15,601 bases of DNA from a bacterium. Its GTDB lineage: Bacteria > Sysuimicrobiota > Sysuimicrobiia > Sysuimicrobiales > Humicultoraceae. The stretch spans positions 1 through 15,601 of the forward strand of contig JBGQGY010000093.1 of NCBI GenBank assembly GCA_041497675.1, given 5' to 3'. This document shows positions 1 to 15,601 of the stretch, piece by piece; position 1 is the stretch's first letter; each line of letters starts with the position of its first letter. Position numbers and translations under genes: made by a program. Under the pieces are notes generated by a model. It had not been told where the DNA came from. It worked only from the letters and a program-made list of their open reading frames with translations, and searched no databases.

Positions 1-1
1 C

Positions 2-145
2 ATCAGGTCGGTCATGCCGGCGGTCGTTAGCCTGTTCCTGTTGATTCCCTCGGGGGTCATTGTCGCAAAAAAGGACCGGCCCGCCGAGCACCAGAAATGG
101 GCGACGGCCACGATCAGCAGTATTGTGACGTACTGGCTGCGGTAG
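2..145 (+). CDS. 3' end of a hypothetical membrane protein (partial, begins before the window)
   Basis: Frame from base 2 is open to TAG at 143-145: IRSVMPAVVSLFLLIPSGVIVAKKDRPAEHQKWATATISSIVTYWLR*. It has a hydrophobic helix, a short charged loop and a second helix ending YWLR. It ends 1 nt from the convergent stop at 147. Not in the ORF track. Confidence 0.6.
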   Translation: MRSVMPAVVSLFLLIPSGVIVAKKDRPAEHQKWATATISSIVTYWLR

Positions 146-146
146 G

Positions 147-1190: not shown

Positions 1191-1197
1191 CCGGCGT

Positions 1198-1226
1198 ATC
1201 CTACTATTCCCGCGTTGCCGGTGCAA
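1198..1226 (-). promoter_or_regulatory. sigma70-type promoter for a probably leaderless mRNA
   Basis: Minus strand reads TTGCAC (1226-1221), 17 nt, TAGGAT (1203-1198), 7 nt, ATG (1190). No Shine-Dalgarno sequence. Confidence 0.7.
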
Positions 1227-1298
1227 TAGGCGCGTCCCGGCTGAAGGAAGGGCGGCGGTGACCGTGAATCAGAGATCAGTCCTGGGTGGAGGTGACGC

Positions 1299-1733
1299 GT
1301 GGCGTTTCTGCGATCAAAGTCGAGTAAGGTAGAAATGCTGAAAAACGTGCCTCTCTTCCGCGGCCTCTCGCAGCGGCAGGTCGAACAGATCGCCCGGCTG
1401 GCCGATGAACTCGAGGTGCCGGCCGGCAGGCGGCTGGCCAGCGCCGGGGACACAGGCCACGAACTCTTCGTCATCGTGGACGGGCAGGCGACCGTCACGA
1501 CGCCGAGTCGCCGCACGATCAAGCTGGGCCCGGGTGAGTTCTTCGGTGAGATGAGCCTGATCGACGGCGGCCCCCGATCGGCGACGGTCGACGCGGCCAC
1601 GCCGATGAAGCTGCTCGTGATCGGACACCGCGAGTTCTGGGAACTGCTGAACGAGGCCCCGCCGTTGACCGGCAAGATCATGCGCGCGCTCTCGCAGCGC
1701 CTGCGCGACGCCGAAGCGGCGGTGACGGCCTAG
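1299..1733 (+). CDS. stand-alone cyclic nucleotide-binding domain protein, 144 aa
   Basis: LKNVPLFRGLS, LFVIVDG and an intact phosphate-binding cassette GEFFGEMSLIDGGPRSATV. It ends after the C-helix with no HTH. RBS GGAGG at 1288-1292 precedes the GTG. Confidence 0.9.
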   Translation: MAFLRSKSSKVEMLKNVPLFRGLSQRQVEQIARLADELEVPAGRRLASAGDTGHELFVIVDGQATVTTPSRRTIKLGPGEFFGEMSLIDGGPRSATVDAATPMKLLVIGHREFWELLNEAPPLTGKIMRALSQRLRDAEAAVTA

Positions 1734-1752
1734 CCGCCCAACGCGGGCGGCT
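1732..1752 (+). other. GC-rich intergenic hairpin without U-tract
   Basis: AGCCGCCC-AACGC-GGGCGGCT forms a perfect 8-bp stem. It overlaps the upstream stop codon and ends 6 nt before ATG 1759. Confidence 0.6.
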
Positions 1753-1758
1753 CGCGGC

Positions 1759-3474
1759 ATGACGCGCCCGCTGACGCTCGTGCTCTCGGTTGCGGTCCTG
1801 TTCGTGGCCGCGCCCTCCCTCCCCGGCATCCCAAATCCAAAAGTCGCCGCTGAGGCCCCCGAGATCGGTCGCTCGGGCGGCACGCTCGTTGACGCGCAGG
1901 TCAGCGAGCCGCGCACCTTCAACCCGATCGTCTATACCGACGTGTCGACCGGCCGCGCGCTCGCCCAAATCTTCGATGGGCTTGTCGAAGCCAACTACAT
2001 CACGGGTGAGGTCGAACCGGCGCTGGCCGAATCGTGGACGATCAGCGCCGATCAGCGCACGTGGACGTTCACCCTGCGACAGGGGATCCGGTGGGCGGAC
2101 GGCCGGCCGCTGACCATGGACGATGTCCTGTTCAGCGTGCAGGTCATCTTCACCAACGGTGTCCAGAGCACGACCGCTGACCTGTTAACCATCAAAGGCA
2201 AGCCGGTGAGATACAAGAAGCTGGACGAGCGGCGCATCCAGTTCACGACCGAAGAACCCTTAGGCTTCTTCCTGCGCCTCCTTCAGGACCTGACGATCAT
2301 CCCAAAGCACAAACTGGCCGGGGCGCTCGCGCAGGGCGGCGTCAAGTTCAACTCGGTCTGGGGCGTCAATACGCCGCCGCGCGAGATCGTGGGCACCGGC
2401 CCGTTCGTAATGCAGCAGTACGTCTTTGGCCAGCGGCTCGTCTATGCGCGCAACCCGTACGCCTGGCGCGTGGATCGCGCCGGCAACCGCCTGCCGTACC
2501 TCGAGCGCTACGTCCTGCAGATCGTCCCCAACGTCGACGCCGAGAAGCTGAAATTCCTGGCCGGTGAGACCGATCTCTACGGCGCCCGACCACGCGAGTA
2601 CGCCGAATTCAAACGGGGAGAGGCGGCGGGCACCTACACCGTCTACGATGGCCCGGAAACGTTCTCGTCGCAGTATCTGGTCTTCAATCAGAACCCGAGA
2701 GGCGTCGGACCGCCGAAGCTGACCTGGTTTCAGGACGCCCGCTTCCGGCGAGCGCTGAATTACGCGATTGACCGGAACACGATCGTCCGGCAGGTGTTCG
2801 CCGGGCGCGCCACGCCCGCGTGGAGCCCGGTCAGCATCGCGGACAAACGGTACTACAACCCGCAGGTGCCGACGTATCCATATACTGTTGCGAGAGCGCA
2901 GGAGCTGTTGGTGGAGGCCGGATACAAGAGGGGCGCCGACGGATTCCTACGCGACGCGACAGGGAACATGATTGAGTTCACCCTCGCCACCAGCGCGCAG
3001 AGCCCCGATGGTGTGGCCATCGCCACCATCGTCCGCGAGGACTTCGTCAAACTCGGTATCAAGGTCACCTATACGCCCGAAGCGTTTGCGACGCTGGTCT
3101 CTAAGCTCGACAGCACCTTCAAATGGGATGCCATCATCATCGGCCTGACCGGCGACAACGAACCGGGTACCGCGCGCACCTACTGGCTGAGTTCCGGGGC
3201 CCTCCACGACTGGAATCCCCGACAGACGAAACCGGCCACAGACTGGGAGGCCGAGATCGACCGGATCTTCGAGCAGGCGGCGCGCGAGGTCGATCCCGAG
3301 AAGCGCCGCCCCTTGTACTTCCGGTGGCAGCAGATCGTGGCCGAACAGGTGCCGGCGATCTACTTCAGCAACCCAAAGACGCAACCGGTGGTTCGCAACA
3401 CCCTGGGCAACACCCGCCTTGGGCTTCAGGGGGCCACCGGGATGCTGATGACACGTTATTATCGCTCACCATGA
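1759..3474 (+). CDS. ABC transporter substrate-binding protein, family 5 (peptide/nickel; DppA/AppA-like), 571 aa
   Basis: Signal peptide, then GGTL, EPRTFNP, EPALAESWTIS..WTFTLRQGIRWADG.PLT.DDV.FS, GTGPF, RNPY.W..D..GNRLPYL and FRRALNYAIDR. Confidence 0.93.
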   Translation: MTRPLTLVLSVAVLFVAAPSLPGIPNPKVAAEAPEIGRSGGTLVDAQVSEPRTFNPIVYTDVSTGRALAQIFDGLVEANYITGEVEPALAESWTISADQRTWTFTLRQGIRWADGRPLTMDDVLFSVQVIFTNGVQSTTADLLTIKGKPVRYKKLDERRIQFTTEEPLGFFLRLLQDLTIIPKHKLAGALAQGGVKFNSVWGVNTPPREIVGTGPFVMQQYVFGQRLVYARNPYAWRVDRAGNRLPYLERYVLQIVPNVDAEKLKFLAGETDLYGARPREYAEFKRGEAAGTYTVYDGPETFSSQYLVFNQNPRGVGPPKLTWFQDARFRRALNYAIDRNTIVRQVFAGRATPAWSPVSIADKRYYNPQVPTYPYTVARAQELLVEAGYKRGADGFLRDATGNMIEFTLATSAQSPDGVAIATIVREDFVKLGIKVTYTPEAFATLVSKLDSTFKWDAIIIGLTGDNEPGTARTYWLSSGALHDWNPRQTKPATDWEAEIDRIFEQAAREVDPEKRRPLYFRWQQIVAEQVPAIYFSNPKTQPVVRNTLGNTRLGLQGATGMLMTRYYRSP

Positions 3475-4799
3475 CGGCCACGCGGGTCGTGATCCTCGGC
3501 GCCGGTGGGCGAGACTTCCACAACTTTAACGTCTACTTCCGCGATCGCCCCGAGTACACGGTCGTCGCCTTCACCGCCGCGCAGATCCCCGATATCGCGG
3601 GACGCACCTATCCGGCCGCGCTGGCGGGGCCTCTGTATCCGAATGGCATCCCGATCGTTACGGAAAGCGCGCTCGACGACCTGCTCCACAAAGAACGCGT
3701 GGACCAGGTCGTCTTCGCGTACAGTGACGTCTCGCACGAGCAGGTCATGCACCTGGCGTCGATCGCCCTGGCGGCGGGCGCGGGGTTCCGGTTGCTCGGC
3801 CCGAGCGAGACGATGTTGCGGGCCCGCATCCCCGTCGTTGCGGTCTGCGCGGTGCGGACCGGCAGTGGAAAGAGTCAGACCGCGCGCCGCATCGCCGCCG
3901 TGCTGCGAGAGGCCGGTCGCCGGGTGGCCATCATCCGTCATCCCATGGCCTATGGCGACCTGGCGCGGCAGGCCGTGCAGCGTTTCGCGACGCTCGAGGA
4001 TCTCGACCACGCGGACGTGACCGTCGAAGAACGAGAAGAGTACGAGCCACACCTCGCCCAGGGCAGCATCGTCTACGCGGGCGTGGACTACGCGGCCGTG
4101 CTGGCGGCCGCGGAACGCGAGGCGGACATCATCATCTGGGACGGCGGGAACAACGACTTCCCGTTTATCCAACCCGATCTACACGTGGTGGTCGCCGACC
4201 CCCTGCGCCCCGGACACGAGCTCCGGTATCATCCCGGTGAAACCAACCTGCGCATGGCGCACGTCGTGGTCATCAACAAGATCGACACGGCGCGACCCGA
4301 AGATGTCGCGACGGTGCGGCGCAATATCACCCAGGCGAACCCCGGCGCCACCGTGATCGAGGCGGCCTCGCCCGTGACGGTCGATCACCCAGAGGCCCTC
4401 GCCGGCCGCAGGGCGATCGTCGTTGAGGACGGGCCCACGGTGACGCACGGCGGGATGGCCTACGGCGCCGGGTTCATCGCCGCCGGGCGGTGTGGCGCGA
4501 CGGTCATCGATCCCCGGCCGTTTGCCGTCGGATCCATCGGGCAGACGTTTCGCGCCTATCCTCACCTCGACCACGTACTCCCGGCCATGGGCTATGGCCC
4601 CCACCAGTTGCAGGAACTGGAAGAGACGCTCCGCCGCGCCGACGCCGACGTCATCGTCATCGGGACACCGGTCGACCTGCGGCACATGTTACGGCTGAAC
4701 AAGCCCGCCGTCCGGGTCACTTACGAACTGGAAGAACGGTCGTCCCCCGGTCTGAGAGACCTTGTCCGGGCGTGGATAACAGATCCTTCCCGGGCCTGA
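3471..4799 (+). CDS. arcE: arginine synthetase ArcE-like P-loop protein (often annotated cyclic 2,3-diphosphoglycerate synthetase-like or predicted GTPase), 442 aa
   Basis: Motifs recognised from the family: ILGAGGRDFHNFN, VAFTA.QIPDI.GR.YP, FAYSDVSHE.VMHLAS, Walker A AVRTGSGKSQ, EEREEYEP, WDGGNNDFPF, HPGETN, VEDGPT.THGGM.YGAG and LPAMGYG. Start is ATG 3471, overlapping the upstream stop as ATGA. Confidence 0.82.
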   Translation: MTATRVVILGAGGRDFHNFNVYFRDRPEYTVVAFTAAQIPDIAGRTYPAALAGPLYPNGIPIVTESALDDLLHKERVDQVVFAYSDVSHEQVMHLASIALAAGAGFRLLGPSETMLRARIPVVAVCAVRTGSGKSQTARRIAAVLREAGRRVAIIRHPMAYGDLARQAVQRFATLEDLDHADVTVEEREEYEPHLAQGSIVYAGVDYAAVLAAAEREADIIIWDGGNNDFPFIQPDLHVVVADPLRPGHELRYHPGETNLRMAHVVVINKIDTARPEDVATVRRNITQANPGATVIEAASPVTVDHPEALAGRRAIVVEDGPTVTHGGMAYGAGFIAAGRCGATVIDPRPFAVGSIGQTFRAYPHLDHVLPAMGYGPHQLQELEETLRRADADVIVIGTPVDLRHMLRLNKPAVRVTYELEERSSPGLRDLVRAWITDPSRA

Positions 4800-4831
4800 G
4801 GGTGGCGGCCGAGGGGTAAAATGGATATATC

Positions 4832-4951
4832 ATGAAGAGATTCAGAATCGTCGCATTGTTCGTCGGCGTGCTCGCCGGCCTCAGCCTCGTGGCGTTCGCC
4901 GCGTACCTGGCGTACGTCGTCAGGCTGTGGCACCAGGCGATGGAAGCATAG
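4832..4951 (+). CDS. small single-pass membrane protein, 39 aa
   Basis: MKRFRIVALFVGVLAGLSLVAFAAYLAYVVRLWHQAMEA*. Basic N-terminus followed by about 25 uncharged residues, mostly GC-ending codons, and TAAAAT at 4817-4822 upstream. Shorter than anything in the ORF track. Confidence 0.55.
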   Translation: MKRFRIVALFVGVLAGLSLVAFAAYLAYVVRLWHQAMEA

Positions 4952-6026
4952 CCGCCTCGATCGCATAGCGCAGTATCGCGCCGATCCCGCCGTGGGCGCG
5001 CAGCCCGTCTGCGGGAGGTCCCTGCACCGGCGCCACCTGCGCACCGTGCCGGCGCGCCAACAGCGGCAGCGTCGGCATCTCCGCAAGCACGTTCCGGTCC
5101 ACGACGAGCGTCAATACCCGGCCCTGTTTGAGGGCATCGAGGGTCGGCTCGATCCCGGTCACCGCGCCACCCCTGGCCGTGCGGTCCAAGAGGGTGCCCA
5201 CGAGCTCGGCGTCCTGCCGCTGTTCCGCATCCAGCGCGATCGCCACCGTCCGGTCGCGGATCTCCGCCATGCCAGCGTGCGACTCCAGCGCAACGACACC
5301 GACAATCTTACTGCGCACCTCGGGCGCCAACGCCAGGCGAACCTCGCCCGTGACCTCGTCGGCCCCGCTCAGGATGAGGCGTTCGATGCCCTTTTCATGC
5401 ATGAAGTGAGCAGTCGCGCGCGCTACTTCTGTCAGGAACTGCCGGCGGCGGGCATCCACGCGGGCGTCAAACGTGTCGCGCTGCGCGCCCCGGCCGACGC
5501 CGACGCCGAACAGCCGGGTCGAGGTGGGCCGGCGTCCGGTCTTCGCGCGCCAGTTCTCGGTATGAAGCTCGAGCGTATCTTCCTCGATGACCGTCGTGTC
5601 GCCCAGATACCCTCTCAAGATACGGGCGTGCTCGTGGTCGACCACGAGGATCGCGTAGGGTTTATACTGATCCACGAGGTCGATCGCCACGGTCACATCC
5701 GGCGGCCCGTAGCGGACACGGTTGGGCACGGGGACAGGTACGTGATATTCCTTCCACAATCCAGGCGCCGCGAAAATGATGAGCCCACGGCCCTCGGGCC
5801 AATGCCGGCTGACAAGCGTCATGATGCGCCGCGCGCTTCGGCTGGCCAGTCGGAGGACCTCACCGGAGAGGTCTTTGAGCGCCTCCCGCATGGCATGCTG
5901 GACCCAGATGGCATAGGCCGGTTTTGCCCCCTGATTTTCCTTTTTGCGGCCATCGACATCAAGATAGATGGAAAAGACGTCCTTGCGATCTGTTTCAAGA
6001 ATCTCGAGGATATCACGATCTCGCAT
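4920..6026 (-). CDS. bacterial archaeo-eukaryotic release factor (baeRF/VLRF1, aeRF1-like) family protein, 368 aa
   Basis: N-domain VFSIYLDVD...GRGLIIFAAP; middle domain YAILVVDHEHARIL, loop GRGAQRD and RLILSG; eRF1 domain-3-like C-terminus AVTGIEPTLDALKQGRV.TLVV...HGGIGAILRY. RBS GGAGGTG lies 5 nt before ATG 6026. Confidence 0.85.
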   Translation of the reverse strand: MRDRDILEILETDRKDVFSIYLDVDGRKKENQGAKPAYAIWVQHAMREALKDLSGEVLRLASRSARRIMTLVSRHWPEGRGLIIFAAPGLWKEYHVPVPVPNRVRYGPPDVTVAIDLVDQYKPYAILVVDHEHARILRGYLGDTTVIEEDTLELHTENWRAKTGRRPTSTRLFGVGVGRGAQRDTFDARVDARRRQFLTEVARATAHFMHEKGIERLILSGADEVTGEVRLALAPEVRSKIVGVVALESHAGMAEIRDRTVAIALDAEQRQDAELVGTLLDRTARGGAVTGIEPTLDALKQGRVLTLVVDRNVLAEMPTLPLLARRHGAQVAPVQGPPADGLRAHGGIGAILRYAIEAAMLPSPGATA

Positions 6027-6055
6027 TTGGTCACCTCCCGCTTCTGTCCACCTCC

Positions 6056-6154
6056 ACCGTACCGGACCTGCGGGGAAGGTGGCATCGGGCACGGACCCGA
6101 TATGCTCACTCGGCCAGGCAGCCGATGGCCCGGGCAGCGCCCGGCTGGCACAAT
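6056..6154. promoter_or_regulatory. divergent promoter pair with two palindromic operator sites
   Basis: TCGGG-cacgga-CCCGA (6085-6100) and TCGGC-caggca-GCCGA (6110-6125). -10-like TACGGT on minus (6061-6056) and extended TGg-CACAAT on plus (6146-6154). Each hexamer is 23 nt from its nearer palindrome. Confidence 0.6.
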
Positions 6155-6183
6155 TGATCTGATTTCGAGGAGGGGATAGCGAC

Positions 6184-8904
6184 GTGCCAGGTGTAGGGCC
6201 AACGCCGTATCCGGCGCACCGCGAGGCCGATGTTGTCTTGAGGGACGGCTCCACCGTCCACGTGCGGCCTGTTCGCCCCAATGACGAGGTCGTGTTGCTG
6301 AGTTTTTTCCGCGGCCTTTCGGACGACGCGCGAATACGGCGCTTCTTCACGCGCACGAGCGACGACGCCCTGGTCCAGCAGGTCCGCAAGATGGCGGACG
6401 TGGACTATGTGCGCCGGTTTGGGCTCGTGGCCACGACCGGTTCGCCGGAACGCATCGTCGGCCACGCCATGTACGCGGCGCTCGACGGCCAGCGCGCGGA
6501 GGTCGCGTTCGCGGTTGCGGAGGACTACCAGGGGCGCGGCCTGGGGACGATCATGCTGGGCCACCTGGCCGAAGTCGCGGCGACCAACGAGATCCGGCTC
6601 TTTGAAGCCGAAGTCCTGCCTGACAACATCAAGATGCTCGACGTGTTCCGCAACGCCGGCTTTCCCACCGAGGCGCACGTCGAGTCGGGGGAGGTCCACG
6701 AGGAGTTTCCCACCGCGCTGACGCCGGACGCGCTGCGCCACTTCGAAGCGCGCGAGCAGACGGCCGCCGTGAACGCGTTGAAGGCCTTCTTCGCGCCGCG
6801 CGCGGTCGCGGTCATCGGCGCCTCGCGGCAGCGCGGGACCATTGGTGGTGAGATCTTTCACAACCTGCTCGCGTATGGGTTCGCCGGACCGGTGTATCCG
6901 GTGAACCCGCGGGCCGAGGTCGTGCAGTCGGTACCCGCCTACCCAGGCGTGGAGGCCATCCCCGGCCCGGTCGATCTTGCCGTAATCGCCGTGCCCGCCG
7001 AACACGTCGTCGAGGCCGCCGAAACGTGCGCTCGGAAGGGCGTGCGCGCCATCGTCGTCATTTCTGCCGGGTTCTCGGAGACCGGTGAGGAGGGACGCAC
7101 GCGGCAGGCCGAATTGGTGCGCATCTGCCGCACTGCCGGGATGCGGCTGATCGGTCCCAATTGCATGGGGATCGCGAACACCAACCCCGCCGTCCGCCTC
7201 AACGCCACCTTCGCGCCGATGGCGCCGCCGCAGGGGCGCGTGGGGTTCCTTTCGCAGAGCGGCGCGCTGGGGCTGGCCGTTATCGACTATGCGGCGTCGC
7301 TGGGGCTGGGCATCTCAACGTTCGTCTCGGTGGGGAACAAAGCCGACATCTCGGGGAACGACCTGCTCAACTACTGGGAAGTCGATCCCGGCACCGACGT
7401 CATCCTGCTCTACCTAGAGTCCTTTGGCAACCCTCGCAAGTTCTCGCGGATCGCGCGGCGGGTCGGCCGGACAAAACCGATCGTGGCCGTCAAGAGCGGG
7501 CGGTCACGCGCCGGTGCCCGGGCGACCTCGTCGCACACGGGCGCGCTGCTCGCGGCCTCGGACGTGACGGTTGACGCCCTCTTCCGCCAGGCCGGCGTGA
7601 TCCGCACGGACACGCTGGAGGAACTGTTCGACGCGGCCGCGCTGCTCGCGCACCAGCCCGTCCCGCAGGGCCGGCGCGTGGCGATCCTGACCAACTCGGG
7701 TGGGCCGGCGATCCTGTGCGCGGACACCTGCGAAGCCTGGGGGCTGGACGTCCCGGTATTGGGCGATGCGACGCAACAGCGATTGCGCGCCATGCTACCG
7801 AAAGAAGCGAGCGTGGGCAACCCCGTCGACATGATCGCGTCGGCGAGCGCGACGGACTACCGCAACGCCATGGGCATCATCGCCGCCGACCCCACCGTCG
7901 ACGCCATGGTAGTGATCTTCATCCCACCATTGGTCACGCGGCCCGAGGACGTGGCGTCGGCGATCGTGGACGCCGCGCGCGCGCTCAATGGTACGAAGCC
8001 GGTGTTGACGGTGTTCATGTCCGCGCGGGGTGTGCCGGATGAATTGCGTGCGGATGACGTGCACATCCCGTCCTATGCCTTCCCGGAAGCCGCCGCGATC
8101 GCGCTGGCGCGCGCGGCCCGCTACGGTGATTGGCTCAGGCGGCCGCTGCCCACACCGGTTGTGCTGCAAGATGTGCGGCGGAACGACGCCGCTGGGATCG
8201 TCGCCGGGGCGCTGCGCCGGGGGAGCGGGTGGTTGGACCCGGTAGAGGTCCAGGCCGTACTCTCCTGCTACGGCCTGCCGGTGGTCGAGCAGCGCGTGGT
8301 CCGAACCATCGCTGAAGCGGCGATGGCCGCCGACCAGTTGGGCGGTCACATCGTGGTGAAAGCCATCGCCCCCGGTTTGGTGCATCGCAGCGAGGTCGGC
8401 GCCGTCCAGTTGGGCCTGGTGGGGGCTGAACAAGTCCGCGAGGCCGCGGCGACCATGGCACAGCGGATGGAGCGGGCCGGCTCACCGGTGACGGGCTACG
8501 TCGTGCAGCGGATGGCGCCGCGCGGTGTCGAGATGATCGCCGGGGTCGTGCATGATAAACAGTTTGGTCCGATGATCGCCTGTGGCGCCGGCGGGGTGCT
8601 CGTTGAACTGATGGGCGACGTGGGTGTCCGGCTGACGCCGCTGGCGCGTGAAGAGGCCGGCGAATTGATCCGGGGCCTGAAGACCTTTCCCTTGCTGTCG
8701 GGGTTCCGGGGCCAGCCGTCTTCCGATGTCTCCGCACTGGAAGACGCGCTCGTGCGGTTGAGTGCCCTCGCGGATGACCTGCCCGAGATCGCGGAACTCG
8801 ATTGCAACCCGATCATTGTCCACCAAAACGGCGCCACGATCGTCGATGCCAGGATTCGCGTCGAGGCCGCCGAGCCGCCCCGACCGCTCGGGGCGAGGGG
8901 ATGA
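6184..8904 (+). CDS. GNAT N-acetyltransferase / NDP-forming acyl-CoA synthetase fusion (Pat-type protein lysine acetyltransferase), 906 aa
   Basis: N-terminal GNAT (VVLRDGSTVHVRP, AEVAFAV..YQGRGLG, DNIKMLDVF), CoA-binding domain (VAVIGAS, VYPVNP, GPNCMG), SQSGALG, GNKAD, SSHTGAL, NSGG, NPVD and C-terminal ATP-grasp (HRSEVGAV, FGPMI, ELDCNP, DARIR). RBS GAGGAGGGG precedes GTG 6184. Confidence 0.92.
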   Translation: MPGVGPTPYPAHREADVVLRDGSTVHVRPVRPNDEVVLLSFFRGLSDDARIRRFFTRTSDDALVQQVRKMADVDYVRRFGLVATTGSPERIVGHAMYAALDGQRAEVAFAVAEDYQGRGLGTIMLGHLAEVAATNEIRLFEAEVLPDNIKMLDVFRNAGFPTEAHVESGEVHEEFPTALTPDALRHFEAREQTAAVNALKAFFAPRAVAVIGASRQRGTIGGEIFHNLLAYGFAGPVYPVNPRAEVVQSVPAYPGVEAIPGPVDLAVIAVPAEHVVEAAETCARKGVRAIVVISAGFSETGEEGRTRQAELVRICRTAGMRLIGPNCMGIANTNPAVRLNATFAPMAPPQGRVGFLSQSGALGLAVIDYAASLGLGISTFVSVGNKADISGNDLLNYWEVDPGTDVILLYLESFGNPRKFSRIARRVGRTKPIVAVKSGRSRAGARATSSHTGALLAASDVTVDALFRQAGVIRTDTLEELFDAAALLAHQPVPQGRRVAILTNSGGPAILCADTCEAWGLDVPVLGDATQQRLRAMLPKEASVGNPVDMIASASATDYRNAMGIIAADPTVDAMVVIFIPPLVTRPEDVASAIVDAARALNGTKPVLTVFMSARGVPDELRADDVHIPSYAFPEAAAIALARAARYGDWLRRPLPTPVVLQDVRRNDAAGIVAGALRRGSGWLDPVEVQAVLSCYGLPVVEQRVVRTIAEAAMAADQLGGHIVVKAIAPGLVHRSEVGAVQLGLVGAEQVREAAATMAQRMERAGSPVTGYVVQRMAPRGVEMIAGVVHDKQFGPMIACGAGGVLVELMGDVGVRLTPLAREEAGELIRGLKTFPLLSGFRGQPSSDVSALEDALVRLSALADDLPEIAELDCNPIIVHQNGATIVDARIRVEAAEPPRPLGARG

Positions 8905-11402
8905 GCGAGCCGCAGGGCTTAGCGAGCGCCGACGCCCGCAGACGGCTGACGGAGCTCGGACCGAACGAACCGGCGCCGCCGCAGCACGTCCCCTTCATCC
9001 GGCACGCGCTTTCGCTGTTCTCGAACCCGCTCGTCCTGATCCTGCTGCTTGCCAGTGGAGTGTCGGCGACGCTTGGAGAGATCATCAACGCCGCGATCAT
9101 CGTCGTGATCGTCCTGCTCAGTGTCAGCCTGAATTTCGTCCAAACCTATCGCTCGCAGCAAGCGGTGGATCGCCTCAGGCAGACTGTCGCGCCGACCGCC
9201 ACCGCCTTGCGCGACGGACAGTGGCGCGAGGTGGCCCGGCGCGACCTGGTGCCCGACGACGTCATCCGTCTGACCGCGGGCGACCTGGTGCCCGCCGACG
9301 CGACGTTGCTGGAAGCCCGCGATCTACACGTGCAGGAGGCCGCGCTCACCGGCGAGTCATTGCCGGTCGAGAAGATCGCGCGCGACCCGCGCGCGGCGCC
9401 GGCGCAGGACGATCAGCAACACAAGGTCTTCCTCGGCACGTCGGTCGTCAGCGGGGTGGCGACCGCGGTCGTGACGGCCACCGGCCCGCGGACGGTCTTC
9501 GGCGACATCGCGGCGCGGCTCAGCCGGCGGCCGCCCGAGACCGAGTTCGAACGAGGCACGCGGCAGTTCGGCCTGTTCATCACGCGAATCGTATTCTTCA
9601 TGGTGCTGTTCGTCTTTGTGGTCAGCGCGGCGCTGCGACATAACCCGCTGGAATCGCTGCTGTTCGCGGTGGCGCTGGCCGTCGGACTGACCCCCGAGCT
9701 GCTGCCGGTGATCACGACCGTCACCCTCGCGCGCGGCGCGGTCCACATGGCGAGGCAGAAGGTGATCGTCAAGCATCTCGAAGCCATTCAAAATTTCGGC
9801 AGCGCCGACATCTTGTGCAGCGACAAGACGGGAACGCTGACCAGCGGCGACATGGTCCTCGACCAGTACCTGGACCCGCTCGGCCGGTCGTCGGAACGCG
9901 TACTGCTGCTGGCGTACCTGAACAGCGCGCACGAAACCGGGATCGAGAACCCTCTGGACGAGGCGATCCTCAAGGCCAGGGAGCGCAACCCGCTGGATGT
10001 TGCGGTCCTGCGGCACGACCACCCGGACGCCCATGCCTACCGCAAGATCGACGAGGTGCCGTTCGATTTCGACCGGCGGTGTGTCTCGATCGTGGTCGAG
10101 GCCAACGGCGAGCGGTTGTTGATCAGCAAGGGGGCGCCCGAGAGCGTGCTGGCCCGGTGCGTGACGCTGGAAGCGGACGGGCAGTCCTCGCCCGTCGACG
10201 CAGCGGCGCGACAACGATGCGACGCACTGTATCAACGGCTGAGCGCGCAAGGGTACAGGACGCTGGCCGTGGCCCACAAGACCGTGCCGCCGCAGGCGGC
10301 GTACGGCGTCGAGGACGAGCAGGGGTTGACGCTGGCGGGGTTCCTCACCTTTGCCGATCCCCCGCGGGCGGATGCGGCCGAGACGCTCCGCGCGATGCGG
10401 CGCGACGGCGTCCTCGTCAAGATCCTGACCGGCGACAACGAGCTGGTCACCCGCCACGTGTGCGCGGAGGTCGGCCTGGACGCAAGCCGCATCGTCTTGG
10501 GATCAGAGGTCGAGCAGATGACCGACCCGGCGCTGGCGGCCACGGCGGAGCAGACCGCGGTGTTCGCGCGCGTCTCGCCGGGTCAGAAGACTCGCATCAT
10601 CCTGGCGCTGAAGTCCCGTGGGCACGTCGTGGGCTTCCTCGGAGACGGCATCAATGACGCGCCGTCGCTGCACGCGGCCGACGTCGGCATCTCGGTGGCG
10701 AGCGGCGTCGACGTGGCAAAGGATGCCGCGGATATCATCTTGTTGGAACGCGGCCTCGACGTGTTGCACAGCGGCATCATCGAAGGCCGGAAGGCGTTTG
10801 GCAACGTGATGAAGTACCTGCTGATGGGAACATCATCAAACTTCGGCAACATGTTCAGCATGGCGGCCGCGTCGGTCTTCCTGCCGTTCCTGCCGATGCT
10901 GCCGACCCAAATCCTGTTGAACAACTTCCTCTACGATGCCGCTCAGATCAGCATCCCAACCGATAACGTCGATCCAACCTTCATCCAAAAACCCAGGCGC
11001 TGGCGCATCAGCCTGATTCGCGACTTCATGCTCTTCATCGGACCGATCAGTTCGATCTATGATTTCCTGACGTTCGGGGCGTTGCTGACCATCTTCCGGG
11101 CACGAGAGCCCCTGTTTCACACAGGATGGTTCGTCGAGTCACTGGCCACCCAGACGCTGGTCCTGTTTGTGATCCGCACAGCGGGGAATCCCCTGCGAAG
11201 CCGTCCCAGCCTTCCGCTGGTGGTAACAACCCTGGTGATGGTCGCGGTCGGGATCGCGCTCCCCTACACACCGGCGGCGCCCTATCTGGGCTTTGTGCCG
11301 CTGCCGGCGGGTTTCTTCGTCTTCCTCGCGGCGGCGACCGGGACGTATCTCGTGGTCGTGGAGATGGTGAAGCGCCGCCTACTGGGCCGGCTCTTCGACT
11401 AG
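8901..11402 (+). CDS. mgtA: magnesium-translocating P-type ATPase (P3B), 833 aa
   Basis: GPNE, LTGESLPVEK, AVGLTPELLP, phosphorylation site CSDKTGTLT, PFDFDRR, KGAPE, TGDN, GDGINDAP, plus MgtA-typical TSSNFGNMFS, NN.LYD..Q..IP.DNVD, GPISSIYD and GWFVESL. Start is ATG 8901, overlapping the pat stop as ATGA. Confidence 0.93.
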   Translation: MSEPQGLASADARRRLTELGPNEPAPPQHVPFIRHALSLFSNPLVLILLLASGVSATLGEIINAAIIVVIVLLSVSLNFVQTYRSQQAVDRLRQTVAPTATALRDGQWREVARRDLVPDDVIRLTAGDLVPADATLLEARDLHVQEAALTGESLPVEKIARDPRAAPAQDDQQHKVFLGTSVVSGVATAVVTATGPRTVFGDIAARLSRRPPETEFERGTRQFGLFITRIVFFMVLFVFVVSAALRHNPLESLLFAVALAVGLTPELLPVITTVTLARGAVHMARQKVIVKHLEAIQNFGSADILCSDKTGTLTSGDMVLDQYLDPLGRSSERVLLLAYLNSAHETGIENPLDEAILKARERNPLDVAVLRHDHPDAHAYRKIDEVPFDFDRRCVSIVVEANGERLLISKGAPESVLARCVTLEADGQSSPVDAAARQRCDALYQRLSAQGYRTLAVAHKTVPPQAAYGVEDEQGLTLAGFLTFADPPRADAAETLRAMRRDGVLVKILTGDNELVTRHVCAEVGLDASRIVLGSEVEQMTDPALAATAEQTAVFARVSPGQKTRIILALKSRGHVVGFLGDGINDAPSLHAADVGISVASGVDVAKDAADIILLERGLDVLHSGIIEGRKAFGNVMKYLLMGTSSNFGNMFSMAAASVFLPFLPMLPTQILLNNFLYDAAQISIPTDNVDPTFIQKPRRWRISLIRDFMLFIGPISSIYDFLTFGALLTIFRAREPLFHTGWFVESLATQTLVLFVIRTAGNPLRSRPSLPLVVTTLVMVAVGIALPYTPAAPYLGFVPLPAGFFVFLAAATGTYLVVVEMVKRRLLGRLFD

Positions 11403-11825
11403 CTACCGGCACCTCTTGATCTTTCGGGTGCCCAGCTGCTCGCAGTTCTTGGTGCAGCGAAACCAGAGGACGCGCTGCGACTTGTTGTCGTAGACGGCCA
11501 CGCCGTACCACCGCTTCGGAGAGGACACTTCGACGTAGGCGGGGACCGACAGCCGGTGTTTCTCGAGCACGTCGCGGACCGTCCCCGCGTTCGTCATGGC
11601 CGAGACCTGAGCGGCCTGGGGCGGCACGTCTTGAACCGCCTCAGTGTACACGTCGACCCGTTGGGTGGTCTTCCCGACCATGCGCGCGCAGAGCTTCGAT
11701 CCTTCGATCGGCACCATCGAGCGTTGGATTTCGTTCACGATCGCCTGATTCAATCGCGGCGCCGCAGCGGCAGACGCCGCCGAGAACGCCATCAGGGTGA
11801 GGATGATCGCGGCCGCGTACCTCAC
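11403..11825 (-). CDS. hypothetical exported protein with four cysteines, 140 aa
   Basis: Clear signal peptide (MRYAAAIILTLMAFSAASAAA). GTG start is 4 nt after the upstream stop, and the stop abuts the mgtA stop. Confidence 0.7.
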   Translation of the reverse strand: MRYAAAIILTLMAFSAASAAAAPRLNQAIVNEIQRSMVPIEGSKLCARMVGKTTQRVDVYTEAVQDVPPQAAQVSAMTNAGTVRDVLEKHRLSVPAYVEVSSPKRWYGVAVYDNKSQRVLWFRCTKNCEQLGTRKIKRCR

Positions 11826-11829
11826 GGCG

Positions 11830-12282
11830 TTACGGGAGCATGACGGTGACGCCGCCGTTCACGAGCACCGAGAGGAGACCCGCGAGCGCCGGGGCCTGCG
11901 ACAGAAGACCTCCGAGGATGGGAGTCTGCGATTGCGACCCGACGGTCGTCCCGGCTGCAAAAAGCACCTCGATGCGCCCCGCCAGCAGTTGCTTCTCCTG
12001 GGCCATCCGTCCGTCGACGCGCACGATATCGCCGACGGCCAGCTTCCCAAACGAGTCGCGCTGGCCGGTGACCTGCGTGGCATCGGTGACGGCGACCTCA
12101 AGCGTGCGGCTACCATCGCGCACGGTGAAGGACCTCTCCGCCTTGGCCGTCACGATTCCCTTCAGGGTCTGCGTGTTTTCCAGGTTGGCGGTGAGCTTCG
12201 CCGCCCGCACAGAGGATTGGGCGGTCACGAGACTGACGACGAGCAAGATAAGGATAACGGGGAGTCGTTGACCTATGAGCAC
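11830..12282 (-). CDS. exported DUF5666-like (OB-fold-type) protein with hydrophobic C-terminal tail, 150 aa
   Basis: RBS GAGGAGG 7 nt before GTG 12282; signal peptide VILILLVVSLVTAQSSVRA; DUF5666-like pattern KGIVT...SFTV...VAVTDAT...LAVGDIVRVDG...LLAGRIEV. Confidence 0.72.
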   Translation of the reverse strand: MLIGQRLPVILILLVVSLVTAQSSVRAAKLTANLENTQTLKGIVTAKAERSFTVRDGSRTLEVAVTDATQVTGQRDSFGKLAVGDIVRVDGRMAQEKQLLAGRIEVLFAAGTTVGSQSQTPILGGLLSQAPALAGLLSVLVNGGVTVMLP

Positions 12283-12355
12283 GGGAGAACCTCCTCGGGC
12301 GCCCTCGGCATTCCGGCGCTTGGAAAGGGCCCGTGTCTTAAGAGATCTATACCCC

Positions 12356-12441
12356 ATCGTGCCCGTCGCCCAGACTTCAAAAGATCGGGTTCGCACCGGA
12401 TGCCGCCGGCGCCGGCCGGTCTCGTATGCTGACCTCAGCAT
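12356..12441. promoter_or_regulatory. divergent promoter pair sharing one palindromic site, plus a second palindrome over the osmC -10
   Basis: TCGGG-ttcgca-CCGGA (12385-12400). CACGAT on minus (12361-12356, 23-nt gap) and TATGCT on plus (12425-12430, 24-nt gap). ATGCTGA-cc-TCAGCAT at 12426-12441. Confidence 0.5.
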
Positions 12442-12500
12442 CTGTTCGTGTCCCTGAGGGATGCACCTTGGTGCCGTCGACCCTCGGAGAGGAGATTTCG

Positions 12501-12944
12501 GTGAAGGCATCGGTGGTCTGGAAGGACGGCATGACATTCGAGGGGAGGACGGAGACCGGCTTTCAGGTGACCACCGCCGCCCCTCTGCCCGACGGCTCAC
12601 CACCATCGGGACCGCTCCCGATGGACCTCGTCCTGATCGCGCTGGGATCGTGCACCGGCATGGACGTGGCAGGCATCCTGAGAAAGATGCGCCAGCCGTT
12701 CACAGGGCTCGTCGTCGAGACCGTCGGTGAGCGGCGGGCCGAGCATCCGAAGAGTTTCAATCACATTGAAATACGGTACACGGTGCGCGGGCGAGGACTC
12801 GATCCTGGGCAGGTCGAAAAGGCCGTCCAACTGAGCCAGGAACGCTACTGCTCCGTCGCGGCTATGCTGCGCCCGGCTGTGCGGTTGACGTATGCCTGGA
12901 GCATCGAGGAGGACGCGCCGGACAGGCTCCGCAAGACGGCGTAG
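12501..12944 (+). CDS. OsmC/Ohr family protein (YhfA-like), 147 aa
   Basis: W.DGMTFEG, GP.PMDLVL.ALGSCTGMDV..IL.KMRQ, ERRAEHPK.F and VEKAVQLSQERYCSV with both conserved Cys. RBS AGGAG precedes GTG 12501. Confidence 0.9.
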   Translation: MKASVVWKDGMTFEGRTETGFQVTTAAPLPDGSPPSGPLPMDLVLIALGSCTGMDVAGILRKMRQPFTGLVVETVGERRAEHPKSFNHIEIRYTVRGRGLDPGQVEKAVQLSQERYCSVAAMLRPAVRLTYAWSIEEDAPDRLRKTA

Positions 12945-12972
12945 TATCGCCATTGGTGGCTGACGAGGCAGG

Positions 12973-12978
12973 TATAAT
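12973..12978 (+). promoter_or_regulatory. -10 box of a probably leaderless transcript
   Basis: Perfect TATAAT, 6 nt before ATG 12985. No SD sequence and no convincing -35. Confidence 0.65.
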
Positions 12979-12984
12979 CACAGC

Positions 12985-13497
12985 ATGACTGATTGGAGCG
13001 CAGCGCTCGTCCAGGGGCTCAAGACCAACGGGATCGAATTCGCGGCCCACGTCCCTGATGAAGTCACGGCGCGCGTACTCACCCTGCTGGAAGCCGACCC
13101 CGCGTTCACCGTGATCCCGGTGACGCGCGAGGAAGAAGGCGTGGCCGTGCTGGCCGGCGCCTTTCTGGGCGGAAAGCGCGGGGCCCTGATCCTTCAAGGC
13201 AGCGGCGTCGGCAATGCGATCAATGCGCTCGCCTCACTCTGCGTTGGCTCTCAGATCCCGCTGCTGATGATCGTCAGCGAGCGCGGGAGGCTGGGGGAGT
13301 TCAATCCCGTCCAGGTCCCGTTGGGACGCGCGATTCCCCGGATCTTTGAGGCCCTGGGGATCCAGTCGTTTTGGATCAACACGACCGAGGAGATTGATCC
13401 CGTGCTGCAAGGCGCCGCCGGTCTTGCGTTTGCGAGTTCCCTCCCCGTCGCCCTCCTCTTACCGACGACCCTGACCGGGGGGAAGCGACTCAAATGA
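12985..13497 (+). CDS. comD: ThDP-dependent decarboxylase alpha subunit (sulfopyruvate/phosphonopyruvate decarboxylase-like, PYR domain), 170 aa
   Basis: HVPD, VTREEEGVAVLAGA.LGG, QGSGVGNAINALASL, IPLLMIVSERG..GEFNP.Q.P.G. The substrate is not established. Confidence 0.78.
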   Translation: MTDWSAALVQGLKTNGIEFAAHVPDEVTARVLTLLEADPAFTVIPVTREEEGVAVLAGAFLGGKRGALILQGSGVGNAINALASLCVGSQIPLLMIVSERGRLGEFNPVQVPLGRAIPRIFEALGIQSFWINTTEEIDPVLQGAAGLAFASSLPVALLLPTTLTGGKRLK

Positions 13498-14069
13498 CCA
13501 CGACGCACATGACCAGGCTCGACGCCACCAAGGCCCTCCTGCGGCTGCTCGATCGCCAGCCGGTCCTGTCAAACCTGGGAGGGAATTCGTACGACCTGCT
13601 TGCGGCGGGCGATCGGCCTGAGAACTTTTACACGTGGGGCGCGATGGGTTCAGTGTCGTCGGTGGGGCTGGGGCTCGCGCTCAGCCGGCCGTCGTTGCGG
13701 GTGGTCGTGCTCGACTGCGACGGGTCCCTGTTGATGAATCTCGGTAGCCTGGCGACGATCGCCTCGCAGCGACCCGCAAACCTCGTCCACATCGTGTTCG
13801 ACAACCGGATGTATGAGACGACAGGCGGTCAGGCGACGCACACCGCGCGCGGCGCGAGCCTGACGGCCATCGGGCGAGGGGCGGGGCTCACCCAGGTCGA
13901 GGATGTCGACACGATCGAGGCCTTCTCACGCGCCGTCGGTCGGGCGCTCAAAGACCCCGGGCCGTGGCTGATCGTCGCTCTGGTCGACGCTTCGGTCTCG
14001 ACAAACAAGATCCCGCGGCGCCCGATCTATTTCAAGGACCGTTTCGTCGACGCGATTCGGCCGCAGTAG
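13494..14069 (+). CDS. comE: ThDP-dependent decarboxylase beta subunit (sulfopyruvate/phosphonopyruvate decarboxylase-like, PP domain), 191 aa
   Basis: DRPENFY.WGAMGSVSSVGLGLAL, variant ThDP motif D(C)DGSLLMNLG...VFDN and YETTGGQ.T. ATGA overlap with the alpha-subunit stop; an alternative Met is at 13509. Confidence 0.78.
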   Translation: MTTTHMTRLDATKALLRLLDRQPVLSNLGGNSYDLLAAGDRPENFYTWGAMGSVSSVGLGLALSRPSLRVVVLDCDGSLLMNLGSLATIASQRPANLVHIVFDNRMYETTGGQATHTARGASLTAIGRGAGLTQVEDVDTIEAFSRAVGRALKDPGPWLIVALVDASVSTNKIPRRPIYFKDRFVDAIRPQ

Positions 14070-15450
14070 GCGGCCGCCGCGTGTGCCAGTCGGTCTCTCG
14101 CTGAAACTTCATCCCCACCTGCAGGATCGTCGACTCGTCAAATAGGTTGCCGGTCACGGCCAGAGACAGCGGCAGGCCTTGCCGGCCAAACCCCATCGGG
14201 AGACCCAGCGCCGGGACGCCGGACAGCGCGCCGAGCACGCTGTAGTTGCCGCGTTTCCGGGGCGTGGTCTTGATGTTCGTCTCCAGCGTCAGCGACTCGT
14301 TCATCAGTGACGGTGAGACGAGCGCGTCGAACGTCTCGAAGAGACGCAGCACGTCGCGGGTTATCACCATGCGCCGCTGCTGTGCCCGCACGTAGTCCGA
14401 CGCCGCCAGCTTCAACGACTCCCGCAGCCCGTTCTTCTGTCCGGTATCGACCAACGCGTCGAGTCTCTCGCTCGTGATCAACTCGGCGTGCGCCGCCGCC
14501 ATCTCGCCGTTGAGGAGCGTCATGGCGGTTTCGACGTACGGATGGTCGGGCATCTGCGCCTGCGCGACCCGCATGCCCGATCGTCTCAGCACGCGCACCG
14601 CCTCGTTGAACGCCGCCTCCAGTTCTGGGGCGTCGGAAAAATCCGCCGGAAGAATGCCAAGACGTAGATTCCTGCGGGCCGCGCGCGGGTTGAACGCGAA
14701 CCCAGGCCGGGTCGCGGTCACATCGTGCCCGTCGGCACCGGCGATCGCCTGCAGCACCCAGCCACAGTCCTCGGCGCTTCGCGCCATCGGGCCGATCTTG
14801 TCCATGCTCCACGACAGCTCCATCGCGCCGTGGCGGCTGACGAGTCCCCAGGTCGGGCGCAGCCCGGTCACGCCGCAGTAGGCCGACGGCGTGACGATGC
14901 TGCCCCATGTCTCAGAGCCCAGCGCGTAGGGCACGAGCCCCGCGGCGACCGCGCTGCCCGACCCGGACGACGAACCCCCCGCCCAGTGCCCCACGTTCCA
15001 TGGATTCAAGCCCGGTCCGTGCAGCGACGCCGTCGCGTACTCGTAGCCGCCGCCACCGGCCAGTTCCACCATGGCGAGCTTGCCGACGAGCACGGCGCCG
15101 GCATCCGCCAACCGTCGAACCACGGTCGCATCGTGGTCGAGCACCTGATCGCGATGCGCCGGCGACCCCCACCGGGTGGGGATCCCTTTGGTCGCCAGCA
15201 GATCTTTCGCCCCGTAGGGCACGCCCAGCAGGGGCGAGCGGCGATCCTTGCTGCGCAGCCGTCGATCCGCCCGCCGCGCCTGCGCCAGGGCAAGATCGGG
15301 TGTCAGTTCCGCGAGCGCGTTGTACGTCGGCCCCATACGGTTGAGCCGATCCAGGAAGATCTTGGTGAGCTCCACCGACGAGATCTTCCGCGCCCGCAGT
15401 TCACGGCCCAGTTCCGTCGCGGTTTTGAAGAACGAGTCGTTGTCAGCCAC
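14032..15450 (-). CDS. amidase signature family protein (GatA-like fold), 472 aa
   Basis: Ser-cisSer-Lys triad motifs GVPYGAKDL, GGSSSGSG and GSETWGSI, plus TGLRPTWGLVSR.G and SMDKIGP. The likely start is GTG 15450 after GGGGGA. No gatB or gatC nearby, so probably not GatA itself. Confidence 0.88.
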   Translation of the reverse strand: MADNDSFFKTATELGRELRARKISSVELTKIFLDRLNRMGPTYNALAELTPDLALAQARRADRRLRSKDRRSPLLGVPYGAKDLLATKGIPTRWGSPAHRDQVLDHDATVVRRLADAGAVLVGKLAMVELAGGGGYEYATASLHGPGLNPWNVGHWAGGSSSGSGSAVAAGLVPYALGSETWGSIVTPSAYCGVTGLRPTWGLVSRHGAMELSWSMDKIGPMARSAEDCGWVLQAIAGADGHDVTATRPGFAFNPRAARRNLRLGILPADFSDAPELEAAFNEAVRVLRRSGMRVAQAQMPDHPYVETAMTLLNGEMAAAHAELITSERLDALVDTGQKNGLRESLKLAASDYVRAQQRRMVITRDVLRLFETFDALVSPSLMNESLTLETNIKTTPRKRGNYSVLGALSGVPALGLPMGFGRQGLPLSLAVTGNLFDESTILQVGMKFQRETDWHTRRPPTAAESRRRNGP

Positions 15451-15484
15451 GCGTGCATCCCCCAGATGTGTCATCACGCTGCAG

Positions 15485-15538
15485 AAGCCTCCCCGCGGGA
15501 CGGGGGCCGCAGCGCCGAGCGCCCCGACAGGGAGGCTT
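15485..15538 (-). terminator. long intergenic stem-loop after the RbsB-like gene (terminator or mRNA-stabilising hairpin)
   Basis: Outer stem AAGCCTCCC (15485-15493) / GGGAGGCTT (15530-15538), inner CGGGG/CCCCG pairing. It starts 4 nt after the stop at 15543 and has only a short U-run. Confidence 0.5.
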
Positions 15539-15542
15539 GAGC

Positions 15543-15601
15543 CTACTTCGTCACGAGCTTCAGCGGGACGGGCGTGAACTTCGGCAGCTTCTGCCCGCCG
15601 A
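15543..15601 (-). CDS. 3' end of a probable sugar (ribose-type, RbsB-like) ABC substrate-binding protein (partial)
   Basis: Minus frame reads GGQKLPKFTPVPLKLVTK*, resembling the typical G.K.....PV.LKLVTK C-terminus of RbsB-family proteins. Only 18 codons are visible. Confidence 0.55.
   Translation of the reverse strand, partial: GGQKLPKFTPVPLKLVTK

Follow-up and report, generated by a model that had tools for sequence, protein, structure and literature searches.

A Phylum-Wide Operator in Candidatus Sysuimicrobiota and the Putative Low-Oxygen or Redox Regulon That It Marks

The DNA considered here is a stretch of 15,601 nucleotides from a bacterium of Candidatus Sysuimicrobiota (NCBI GenBank assembly GCA_041497675.1, contig JBGQGY010000093.1, positions 1 to 15,601 of the forward strand; this whole stretch is the window), and the element at issue is a palindrome that recurs between its divergently transcribed genes. 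The palindrome belongs to an 18-bp operator, ATCGGGY-N4-RCCCGAT, found throughout the genome and the phylum at a fixed distance from -10 boxes. The explanation favoured here, with modest confidence when it is taken as a whole, is a phylum-wide operator and activator regulon that responds to low oxygen or redox, is read by a two-component system encoded on another contig (C72), and counts among its conserved members two genes of the window, baeRF and pat. The original prediction had described a 16-bp palindrome, TCGGS-N6-SCSGA, at four divergent promoters and had assigned six window genes to one activator-controlled module; its promoters have fared considerably better than its module.

The operator and its promoters

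Pattern searches place TCGGS-N6-SCSGA at 6085-6100, 6110-6125 and 12385-12400, exactly where the original prediction had it, and at two further places that it left unmentioned, 12606-12621 within osmC and 3538-3553 in a coding region. These five places give eight strand-matches in the window, where shuffled sequences average 1.46 and none of 200 has as many as eight. As an informative motif the 16-mer was nonetheless rejected as too common: it matches the genome 403 times, 30 of them intergenic, and 14 other spacers give 6-19 intergenic matches. The informative motif is longer. ATCGG-N8-CCGAT has 15 of its 24 matches in intergenic DNA, while every other spacer from 0 to 14 has 0-3, and a matrix seeded and trained without the window's contig converged on the 18-mer. 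Gene calling left 311 kb of intergenic DNA between 3,898 genes, and there the matrix finds 33 sites of at least 15 bits (20 shuffles: mean 1.15, maximum 4). This count is partly circular, since the seed pattern was taken from the window and training used the very intergenic DNA that was then scanned, and to that extent it weighs against the favoured explanation. The 3.5 Mb of coding DNA holds 20 matches of that strength. The genome scan against shuffles that had been proposed as a check thus came out in favour of the motif, and that the operator is real is virtually certain.

The promoter architecture proposed for these sites also stands. The hexamers TACGGT (6061-6056, minus strand), CACAAT (6149-6154), CACGAT (12361-12356, minus strand) and TATGCT (12425-12430) lie where they were reported, at 23, 23, 23 and 24 nt from the 16-mer, and none has a good -35, the hexamers there sharing 1, 3, 1 and 1 of six letters with TTGACA. 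A consensus promoter scan, uninformative here, gave nothing at the four promoter places. Fixed spacing, previously named as the main support, has become stronger evidence: an nAnnnT box lies 23-24 nt from the 16-mer at 23 of the 33 sites and at 21 of the 31 outside the window (flanks read by eye; about 4 expected from base composition), and across five other genomes the site and -10 box together give 68 matches at 22-23 nt from the 18-mer versus 3 at 26-27 nt. The -35 hexamer begins with the final T of the 18-mer, a 17-18 bp spacer leads to the -10 box, and a few promoters have TTGACA, TTGACT or TTGACC at the -35 place. Sites are paired at 6084/6109 and at four other promoters of this genome and single at many others. 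Sequence, spacing and conservation together bear out the class II activator geometry that had been suggested, with a real operator at the activator position and in contact with a poor -35. It is very likely that a dimeric transcription activator binds ATCGGGY-N4-RCCCGAT, activation being suggested by this geometry. Because the operator is centred near -43.5 or -44.5 and its last base is the first of the -35 hexamer, the activator would offset the weak -35 and recruit the main RNA polymerase, and one site, or a strong and a weak one together, could drive two divergent genes.

The best-conserved example is the promoter region shared by baeRF and pat. The boxes below were read from the DNA; the gene labels of the original prediction, here and elsewhere in the window, agree with Pfam and NCBIfam profile searches.

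4920 to 6026, minus strand: candidate ribosome hibernation factor of baeRF10 / Balon-like type, 368 amino acids (PF18854, 81 bits, cut-off 27)
6056 to 6061, minus strand: -10 box of baeRF, TACGGT, 22 nt from the 18-bp operator
6084 to 6101, no strand: primary operator, ATCGGGCACGGACCCGAT, 0 mismatches to the consensus, 20.4 bits by the matrix made without this contig
6109 to 6126, no strand: secondary, weak operator, 3 mismatches, 12.7 bits, centred at about -43.5 for pat
6149 to 6154, plus strand: -10 box of pat, CACAAT
6184 to 8904, plus strand: Pat-type fusion of a GNAT acetyltransferase with an NDP-forming acyl-CoA ligase, 906 amino acids (Pfam GNAT, CoA_binding, Succ_CoA_lig and ATP-grasp_5)

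The primary operator, centred at about -43.5 for baeRF and -68.5 for pat, is kept in genomes G001, G009, G017, G023 and G014, and the right half-site of the secondary operator stands at the same place in the first four, where the baeRF -10 box reads TACGCT, TACAAT or TAGAAT. The pat -10 region, GGCACAAT, is identical in all five genomes that share the divergent arrangement. The G001 operator is separated from baeRF by an Hsp20-like gene (read by eye). Farther afield, 6 of 29 other baeRF loci and 5 of 24 other pat loci have a site with at most two mismatches in the 250 bp before the gene; many of the loci without one have coding DNA directly upstream. The phylogenetic footprinting that had been called for is therefore divided in its outcome, since the baeRF/pat promoter is kept in G001, G009, G017 and G023 and the site at 12384 is not kept in G001. 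Given that the former promoter is retained and that neither the 12384 site nor the linkage of mgtA to pat is, baeRF and pat are predicted to be conserved regulon members and the other four window genes local recruits.

The baeRF product falls in the aeRF1-like fold family by its PF18854 match, has neither NIKS nor GGQ in its translation, and scores 98 bits against NF052288 (MSMEG_1130 family), far under the cut-off of 480. The Pat-like protein scores 529 bits against TIGR02717, under the cut-off of 567. It retains the SHTG histidine motif of NDP-forming acyl-CoA ligases and so may be an active ligase besides an acetyltransferase; some Pat enzymes are without this histidine.

Distribution in the phylum

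The exact 18-mer is present in 45 of 61 genomes, its reversed control in none of the 61. Of 94 genomes of the phylum, 78 have the site together with its -10 box, with 3 control matches altogether. Genus g4 is nearly devoid of sites (exact in 1 of 8 genomes, with box in 2 of 8), and neither baeRF nor pat was found in any of its eight genomes. In G009, 14 of 18 exact sites fall within 704-807 kb, with baeRF/pat at the edge near 693 kb. As an observation in its own right, this near-complete genome holds most of its operator sites on an island of about 120 kb (G009:C1:685000-812000, loci L064-L070), and the kinase-regulator pair lies 16 kb beyond it. Candidatus Sysuimicrobiota has been described as widespread, uncultured and predicted to be facultatively anaerobic (PMC11604079, PMC11962464). 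The term 'two-component' is absent from the main text of both papers, supplements being outside the comparison, and a literature search that left subscription journals, regulon databases and supplements outside its scope returned no description of the operator or of a regulon in this phylum. For an uncultured phylum, the operator amounts to a sequence rule that predicts which genes respond together, nosZ in this genome included.

Genes behind the operator

Flanking genes were annotated by Pfam for most of the 33 sites, those on contigs C57, C72, C206 and C24 being left out. Among the genes behind sites are rrf2-nosZ-nosL-nosD, a cupredoxin-CopD-ccm group, a molybdopterin oxidoreductase, a multicopper oxidase, pyruvate:ferredoxin oxidoreductase (PFOR), a 2-oxoacid:ferredoxin oxidoreductase operon, formate-tetrahydrofolate ligase (FTHFS), malic enzyme, citrate synthase, hemerythrin and CBS proteins, two universal stress proteins (USPs) and Hsp20. 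Further targets include FeoB, a Mrp/hydrogenase-like membrane cluster, peptide-binding proteins and two additional NarL-type systems and, from translations alone, a second feoB operon and a sugar-phosphate-type binding protein. The expected enrichment before USP, CBS, Hsp20 and response-regulator genes is borne out by matrix sites and Pfam labels; the expectation did not hold for hibernation-promoting factor, since the one such gene in this genome has no site. A site lies directly upstream of 2 of 5 stand-alone USP genes and 1 of 2 Hsp20 genes; the three other USP genes, one of which ends the oxidoreductase operon, and the second Hsp20 gene have none directly in front.

Low oxygen is the setting of nosZ, PFOR, 2-oxoacid:ferredoxin oxidoreductase, FTHFS and FeoB functions. 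Because the targets include nosZ, PFOR, FTHFS and FeoB together with USPs, Hsp20 and CBS proteins, the gene set reads, as far as its predicted functions go, as a low-oxygen regulon rather than a six-gene module, and it is one of anaerobic metabolism as much as of dormancy. The genes behind the roughly 30 sites would serve anaerobic respiration, ferredoxin-based metabolism and stress survival; the trigger would therefore most likely be low oxygen or a redox shift, and judged by gene content an oxygen or redox signal is likely.

Two peripheral loci deserve mention. On contig C69 an operator (G000:C69, L032:18996-19041) is flanked by -10 boxes in both directions; that for rightward transcription, TAGAGT, points antisense into the end of a transporter gene, possibly for a small or antisense RNA. 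On C90, two near-identical 30-bp elements (G000:C90:8200 and 8632; L058:3201-3660) lie 432 bp apart before an arsR operon, at 15 bits and with off-register -10 boxes; they are possibly a duplication or a different operator.

The candidate regulator

The genome has 16 LuxR-type helix matches, and the suggestion that the regulator is encoded outside the window and is of NarL/LuxR type is probably correct. By elimination, synteny and sites before its own gene, the reader of the operator is probably the NarL-family response regulator at G000:C72:13477-14127, which has a GAF kinase adjacent to it. Of 61 genomes, 50 have an orthologue of at least 66% identity, among them every one of the 21 with at least five exact sites; the 11 genomes without it have 0-4 exact sites each. 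(Fisher's test by hand for regulator presence against at least five sites gives about 0.006, a figure not relied on, kin genomes being dependent and some incomplete.) All 15 aligned copies, three of them from g4, have nearly the same recognition helix, and among solved structures VraR (E 7e-53) is closer to the C72 regulator than DevR (E 5e-35). The operator stands directly before the C72-type regulator gene in eight genomes (G045, G051, G054, G060, G059, G053, G004 and G020) and directly before the gene at 4 of the 11 other regulator loci of the orthologue survey. Likewise, 9 of the 24 genomes with a close pat have this regulator no farther than about 6 kb from pat, G053 at 65 bp before it. 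In G094, pat directly precedes the kinase, genes for USP, CBS and Pfk-like proteins are nearby, and the genome has 11 site-plus-box matches; further genomes have 4 and 3 where kinases are close and 3 and 0 where they are distant.

Other regulators of this genome were profiled alongside. The C26 dCache-GAF system was rejected as master, since only 12 of 60 other genomes have an orthologue (at least 70% identity) and G009, G023 and G053 have none; it looks like a target of the regulon. Those of C69, C90 and C97 were also set aside, with best matches of 42-48% in G009, G023, G053 and G037; C90 alone reaches 67%, in G004. Three of these other NarL regulators have no orthologue in G009, G023, G053 or G037, and the fourth has none in G009, G023 or G053.

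The same operator and regulon might instead answer to another reader: a one-component regulator outside the profiled set, a divergent CRP/FNR protein or a NarL paralogue. Class II promoters of the CRP/FNR kind have a palindrome touching the -35 before anaerobic genes, a 5-6-5 layout with fixed T and G positions suits CRP/FNR sites as well, CRP-family genes occur on C18, C65 and C225 of this genome, and g4 holds a C72-type regulator without sites. However, the core sequence differs from theirs, and no CRP/FNR protein is found in at least one complete, site-rich genome: G037 (100% complete, five sites) gives no match to PF00325 and none over the full length to PF13545. PF00325 is missing from four of the eight genomes searched (G037, G014, G008 and G035), and G023 and G004 give only weak or partial PF13545 matches. 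A CRP/FNR reader was rejected on these grounds, since not every genome rich in the site has such a protein (none found in G037; weak matches in G023 and G004). The four other NarL regulators, for their part, are patchy across genomes, while the C72 type is tied by position to pat and to operator sites. Another reader is accordingly unlikely, though it is the strongest of the alternatives.

The kinase and the signal

The C72 regulator would be phosphorylated by the adjacent kinase, a soluble protein of 392 amino acids with a GAF-HisKA_3-HATPase arrangement, one GAF domain and no PAS domain by Pfam. Its C79, C81, C99 and H115, found without exception in the 15 kinases compared, include a Cys-X-Cys-X17-Cys motif within the GAF domain; the three cysteines and the histidine probably hold an iron-sulfur cluster, and the spacing of the cysteines suggests an iron-sulfur sensor of oxygen or redox. 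The structural model (pLDDT 81, pTM 0.49) retrieved generic kinases and phytochromes in a fold search, nothing that bears on a ligand. G026 of genus g4 has a longer kinase (L280:2576-4348), which combines the same Cys-X-Cys-X17-Cys GAF with a membrane region at its N-terminus, and the membrane-anchored form occurs in about half of the relatives.

That the same regulator responds to oxidative, nitrosative or sulfide stress, or to general growth arrest, is a still less probable alternative. AirS has been reported to be most active when oxidised (PMC8774646) and a three-cysteine [2Fe-2S] NreB to sense sulfide (PMC13478379), and OsmC, hemerythrin, Hsp20 and copper proteins are among the targets; nevertheless, some of the strongest sites are those of nosZ, PFOR, 2-oxoacid:ferredoxin oxidoreductase, FTHFS and FeoB.

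Relation to known systems

The closest parallel in design is the mycobacterial DosR/DevR system, a NarL-family activator with USPs, Hsp20, Rv2629 (Balon) and a P-type ATPase among its targets. DosR boxes lie near -42.5 and -63.5, in primary and secondary pairs that also serve divergent genes (PMC3177182), and the hspX box is centred near -43.5 with a weak -35 (PMC13486717). The operator described here has the same proximal position near -43, the same weak -35 and primary and secondary boxes at divergent promoters, as well as USP, Hsp20, CBS and Balon-type targets. However, its half-site is ATCGGGY rather than the GGGACT of the Dev box (PMC3177182) and many of its promoters have a single site; the C72 regulator is no DosR orthologue and is closer to VraR; the kinase has one cysteine-bearing GAF domain where DosS/DosT have tandem GAFs with heme; and the regulon extends to nosZ, PFOR and FTHFS. 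The system thus works like DosR and is not DosR. The parallel drawn in the original prediction survives in geometry and in part of the targets, and fails in site, regulator and sensor; the likeness of the window's pump to CtpF is loose because that pump is a type IIIB magnesium pump, MgtA.

Two staphylococcal systems are similarly instructive. With AirSR (YhcSR) of Staphylococcus aureus the kinase shares an N-terminal cysteine cluster and the spacing Cys-X-Cys-X17-Cys, the AirS [2Fe-2S] motif being Cys-X7-Cys-X-Cys-X17-Cys (review PMC4601167). It differs in its invariant His115 and in the targets of its regulon, and a word-seeded search found no protein named AirS or YhcS among 93 GAF-region matches, most of which are nameless. 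NreBC also pairs a soluble HisKA_3 kinase, in its case an oxygen sensor, with a NarL-type regulator, but the NreB cluster sits in a PAS domain, where the candidate kinase has a GAF domain, and the regulon here is wider, with dormancy-type genes. The NreC site, TAGGGA-N4-TCCCTA (a sequence not confirmed in print), has a 6-4-6 layout like that of the operator. The staphylococcal binding site of NreC is a GC-rich palindrome in front of genes for anaerobic respiration (PMC8139620), and NreB is active in anoxia (PMC8139620, PMC8774646). Strict membership in AirSR, NreBC or CRP/FNR fails in each case. At the level of single proteins, Balon (Rv2629, Msmeg1130) is aeRF1-like without NIKS or GGQ, is induced by hypoxia in mycobacteria and is often encoded beside Hsp20 and OsmC (PMC10901736); the window's baeRF is of an aeRF1-like family also without these motifs and is a candidate for a hibernation role, but it falls far under the NCBIfam cut-offs of three named Balon families.

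The design as such, in which a NarL-type switch governs both stress and anaerobic genes, has precedents in mycobacteria and staphylococci. More tentatively, one master switch, a GAF kinase with a three-cysteine, one-histidine iron-sulfur site and its NarL partner, may take the place of both FNR and DosR in these bacteria through an operator not described before; the odds are somewhat against so strong a form. Were it true, nitrous-oxide respiration and ferredoxin-based carbon metabolism would be turned on by a single switch, and with them ribosome hibernation and protein acetylation. The operator also leads to a small soluble kinase and a regulator that are open to testing without culture of the organism.

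Several observations weigh against the low-oxygen regulon under the C72 system. All eight g4 genomes have a C72-type regulator whose helix is intact, yet the genus has almost no sites, and an exact site is missing from 10 of the 50 genomes with such a regulator. In G008 (78% complete) there are six site-plus-box matches, with neither regulator nor kinase found, and no site stands in front of this genome's own kinase-regulator operon. The profiled regulators were those of C72, C26, C69, C90 and C97, which places C5, two NarL proteins of C2, the LuxR match of C65 and other families outside the comparison. With regard to the signal, ABC binding proteins and citrate synthase do not indicate low oxygen, the first AirS cysteine is absent in 15 of 15 kinases, and a review describes AirS as most active oxidised and low under anaerobiosis (PMC8774646), which would imply the opposite sign. 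Further, relatives were surveyed by pattern search, which misses weak sites, and the genomes of kin do not count as independent evidence. Two RNA runs contained 6-7% of the sampled words, and all of their contigs were short and fragmentary.

The remaining genes of the window

The other four genes assigned to the module lie downstream of pat and around the second intergenic region.

8901 to 11402, plus strand: MgtA-type P-type IIIB ATPase, 833 amino acids, its start overlapping the pat stop (TIGR01524, 905 bits, cut-off 611)
11403 to 11825, minus strand: protein of no family with a signal-peptide-like start, 140 amino acids (no Pfam or NCBIfam match)
11830 to 12282, minus strand: DUF5666 (OB-fold-like) exported protein, 150 amino acids (PF18914, 40 bits, cut-off 27)
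12356 to 12361, minus strand: possible -10 box of the DUF5666 pair, CACGAT, the weakest of the four promoters
12384 to 12401, no strand: operator, ATCGGGTTCGCACCGGAT, 1 mismatch, 18.6 bits, centred at about -44.5 for osmC
12425 to 12430, plus strand: -10 box of osmC, TATGCT, a hexamer that recurs at this spacing at other promoters
12501 to 12944, plus strand: OsmC/YhfA-family protein, 147 amino acids (PF02566, 67 bits, over cut-off; NF008009, 104 bits, cut-off 138)
12605 to 12622, no strand: fourth motif copy, within osmC, 17.2 bits, in the codons of PSGPLPM

That all six genes form one module linking ribosome protection, acetylation, magnesium uptake and thiol redox is improbable. The geometry is right at all four promoters here, and the genes may be co-activated in this genome; as a conserved unit the module is largely refuted. 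The mgtA gene stands behind pat in this genome and in one of 13 others with a close mgtA (G001), and appears to be a genus-level, local passenger of the pat operon. The operator at 12384 is absent from the aligned G001 region upstream of the closest DUF5666 homologue, the CACGAT box is not retained there, and none of 14 other DUF5666-homologue loci has a site within two mismatches. Similarly, a site lies directly upstream of 1 of 29 osmC homologues, all just 46-55% identical. By this comparison the 12384 operator would be lineage-specific. In addition, a contig of run X3 has one base fewer at 12379, between the CACGAT box and the operator, so that the leftward distance is shorter there. For the copy at 12605 a coding coincidence is probable; a similar one lies inside the osmC homologue of G039 (L209). 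That the sites at large are chance GC-rich palindromes, or a repetitive-element-like repeat with no promoter role, can be dismissed despite the 403 matches of the loose pattern and the 12605 copy, being refuted by the spacing of the -10 boxes (68 against 3), the spacer-specific peak and the conservation at orthologous promoters.

Neighbouring features

No Rfam family was found in the window. In G001, a c-di-GMP-I-GGC riboswitch (62 bits, over cut-off) lies upstream of the DUF5666 homologue (L251:2067-2141), just past the place that the 12384 operator and osmC occupy in the window, the neighbouring DNA having been replaced between the two species. Beginning 40 bp past osmC, 12985-14069 encodes two thiamine-diphosphate enzyme subunits like sulfopyruvate decarboxylase alpha and beta, both under cut-off, which could share the osmC transcript; a contig of run X3 lacks 33 bp at this junction. 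On the other side of baeRF, 3471-4799 encodes a P-loop protein of 442 amino acids that overlaps the stop of a peptide-binding protein gene and has weak Pfam matches and no NCBIfam family, and 1299-1733 encodes a stand-alone cyclic-nucleotide-binding domain protein without a DNA-binding part.

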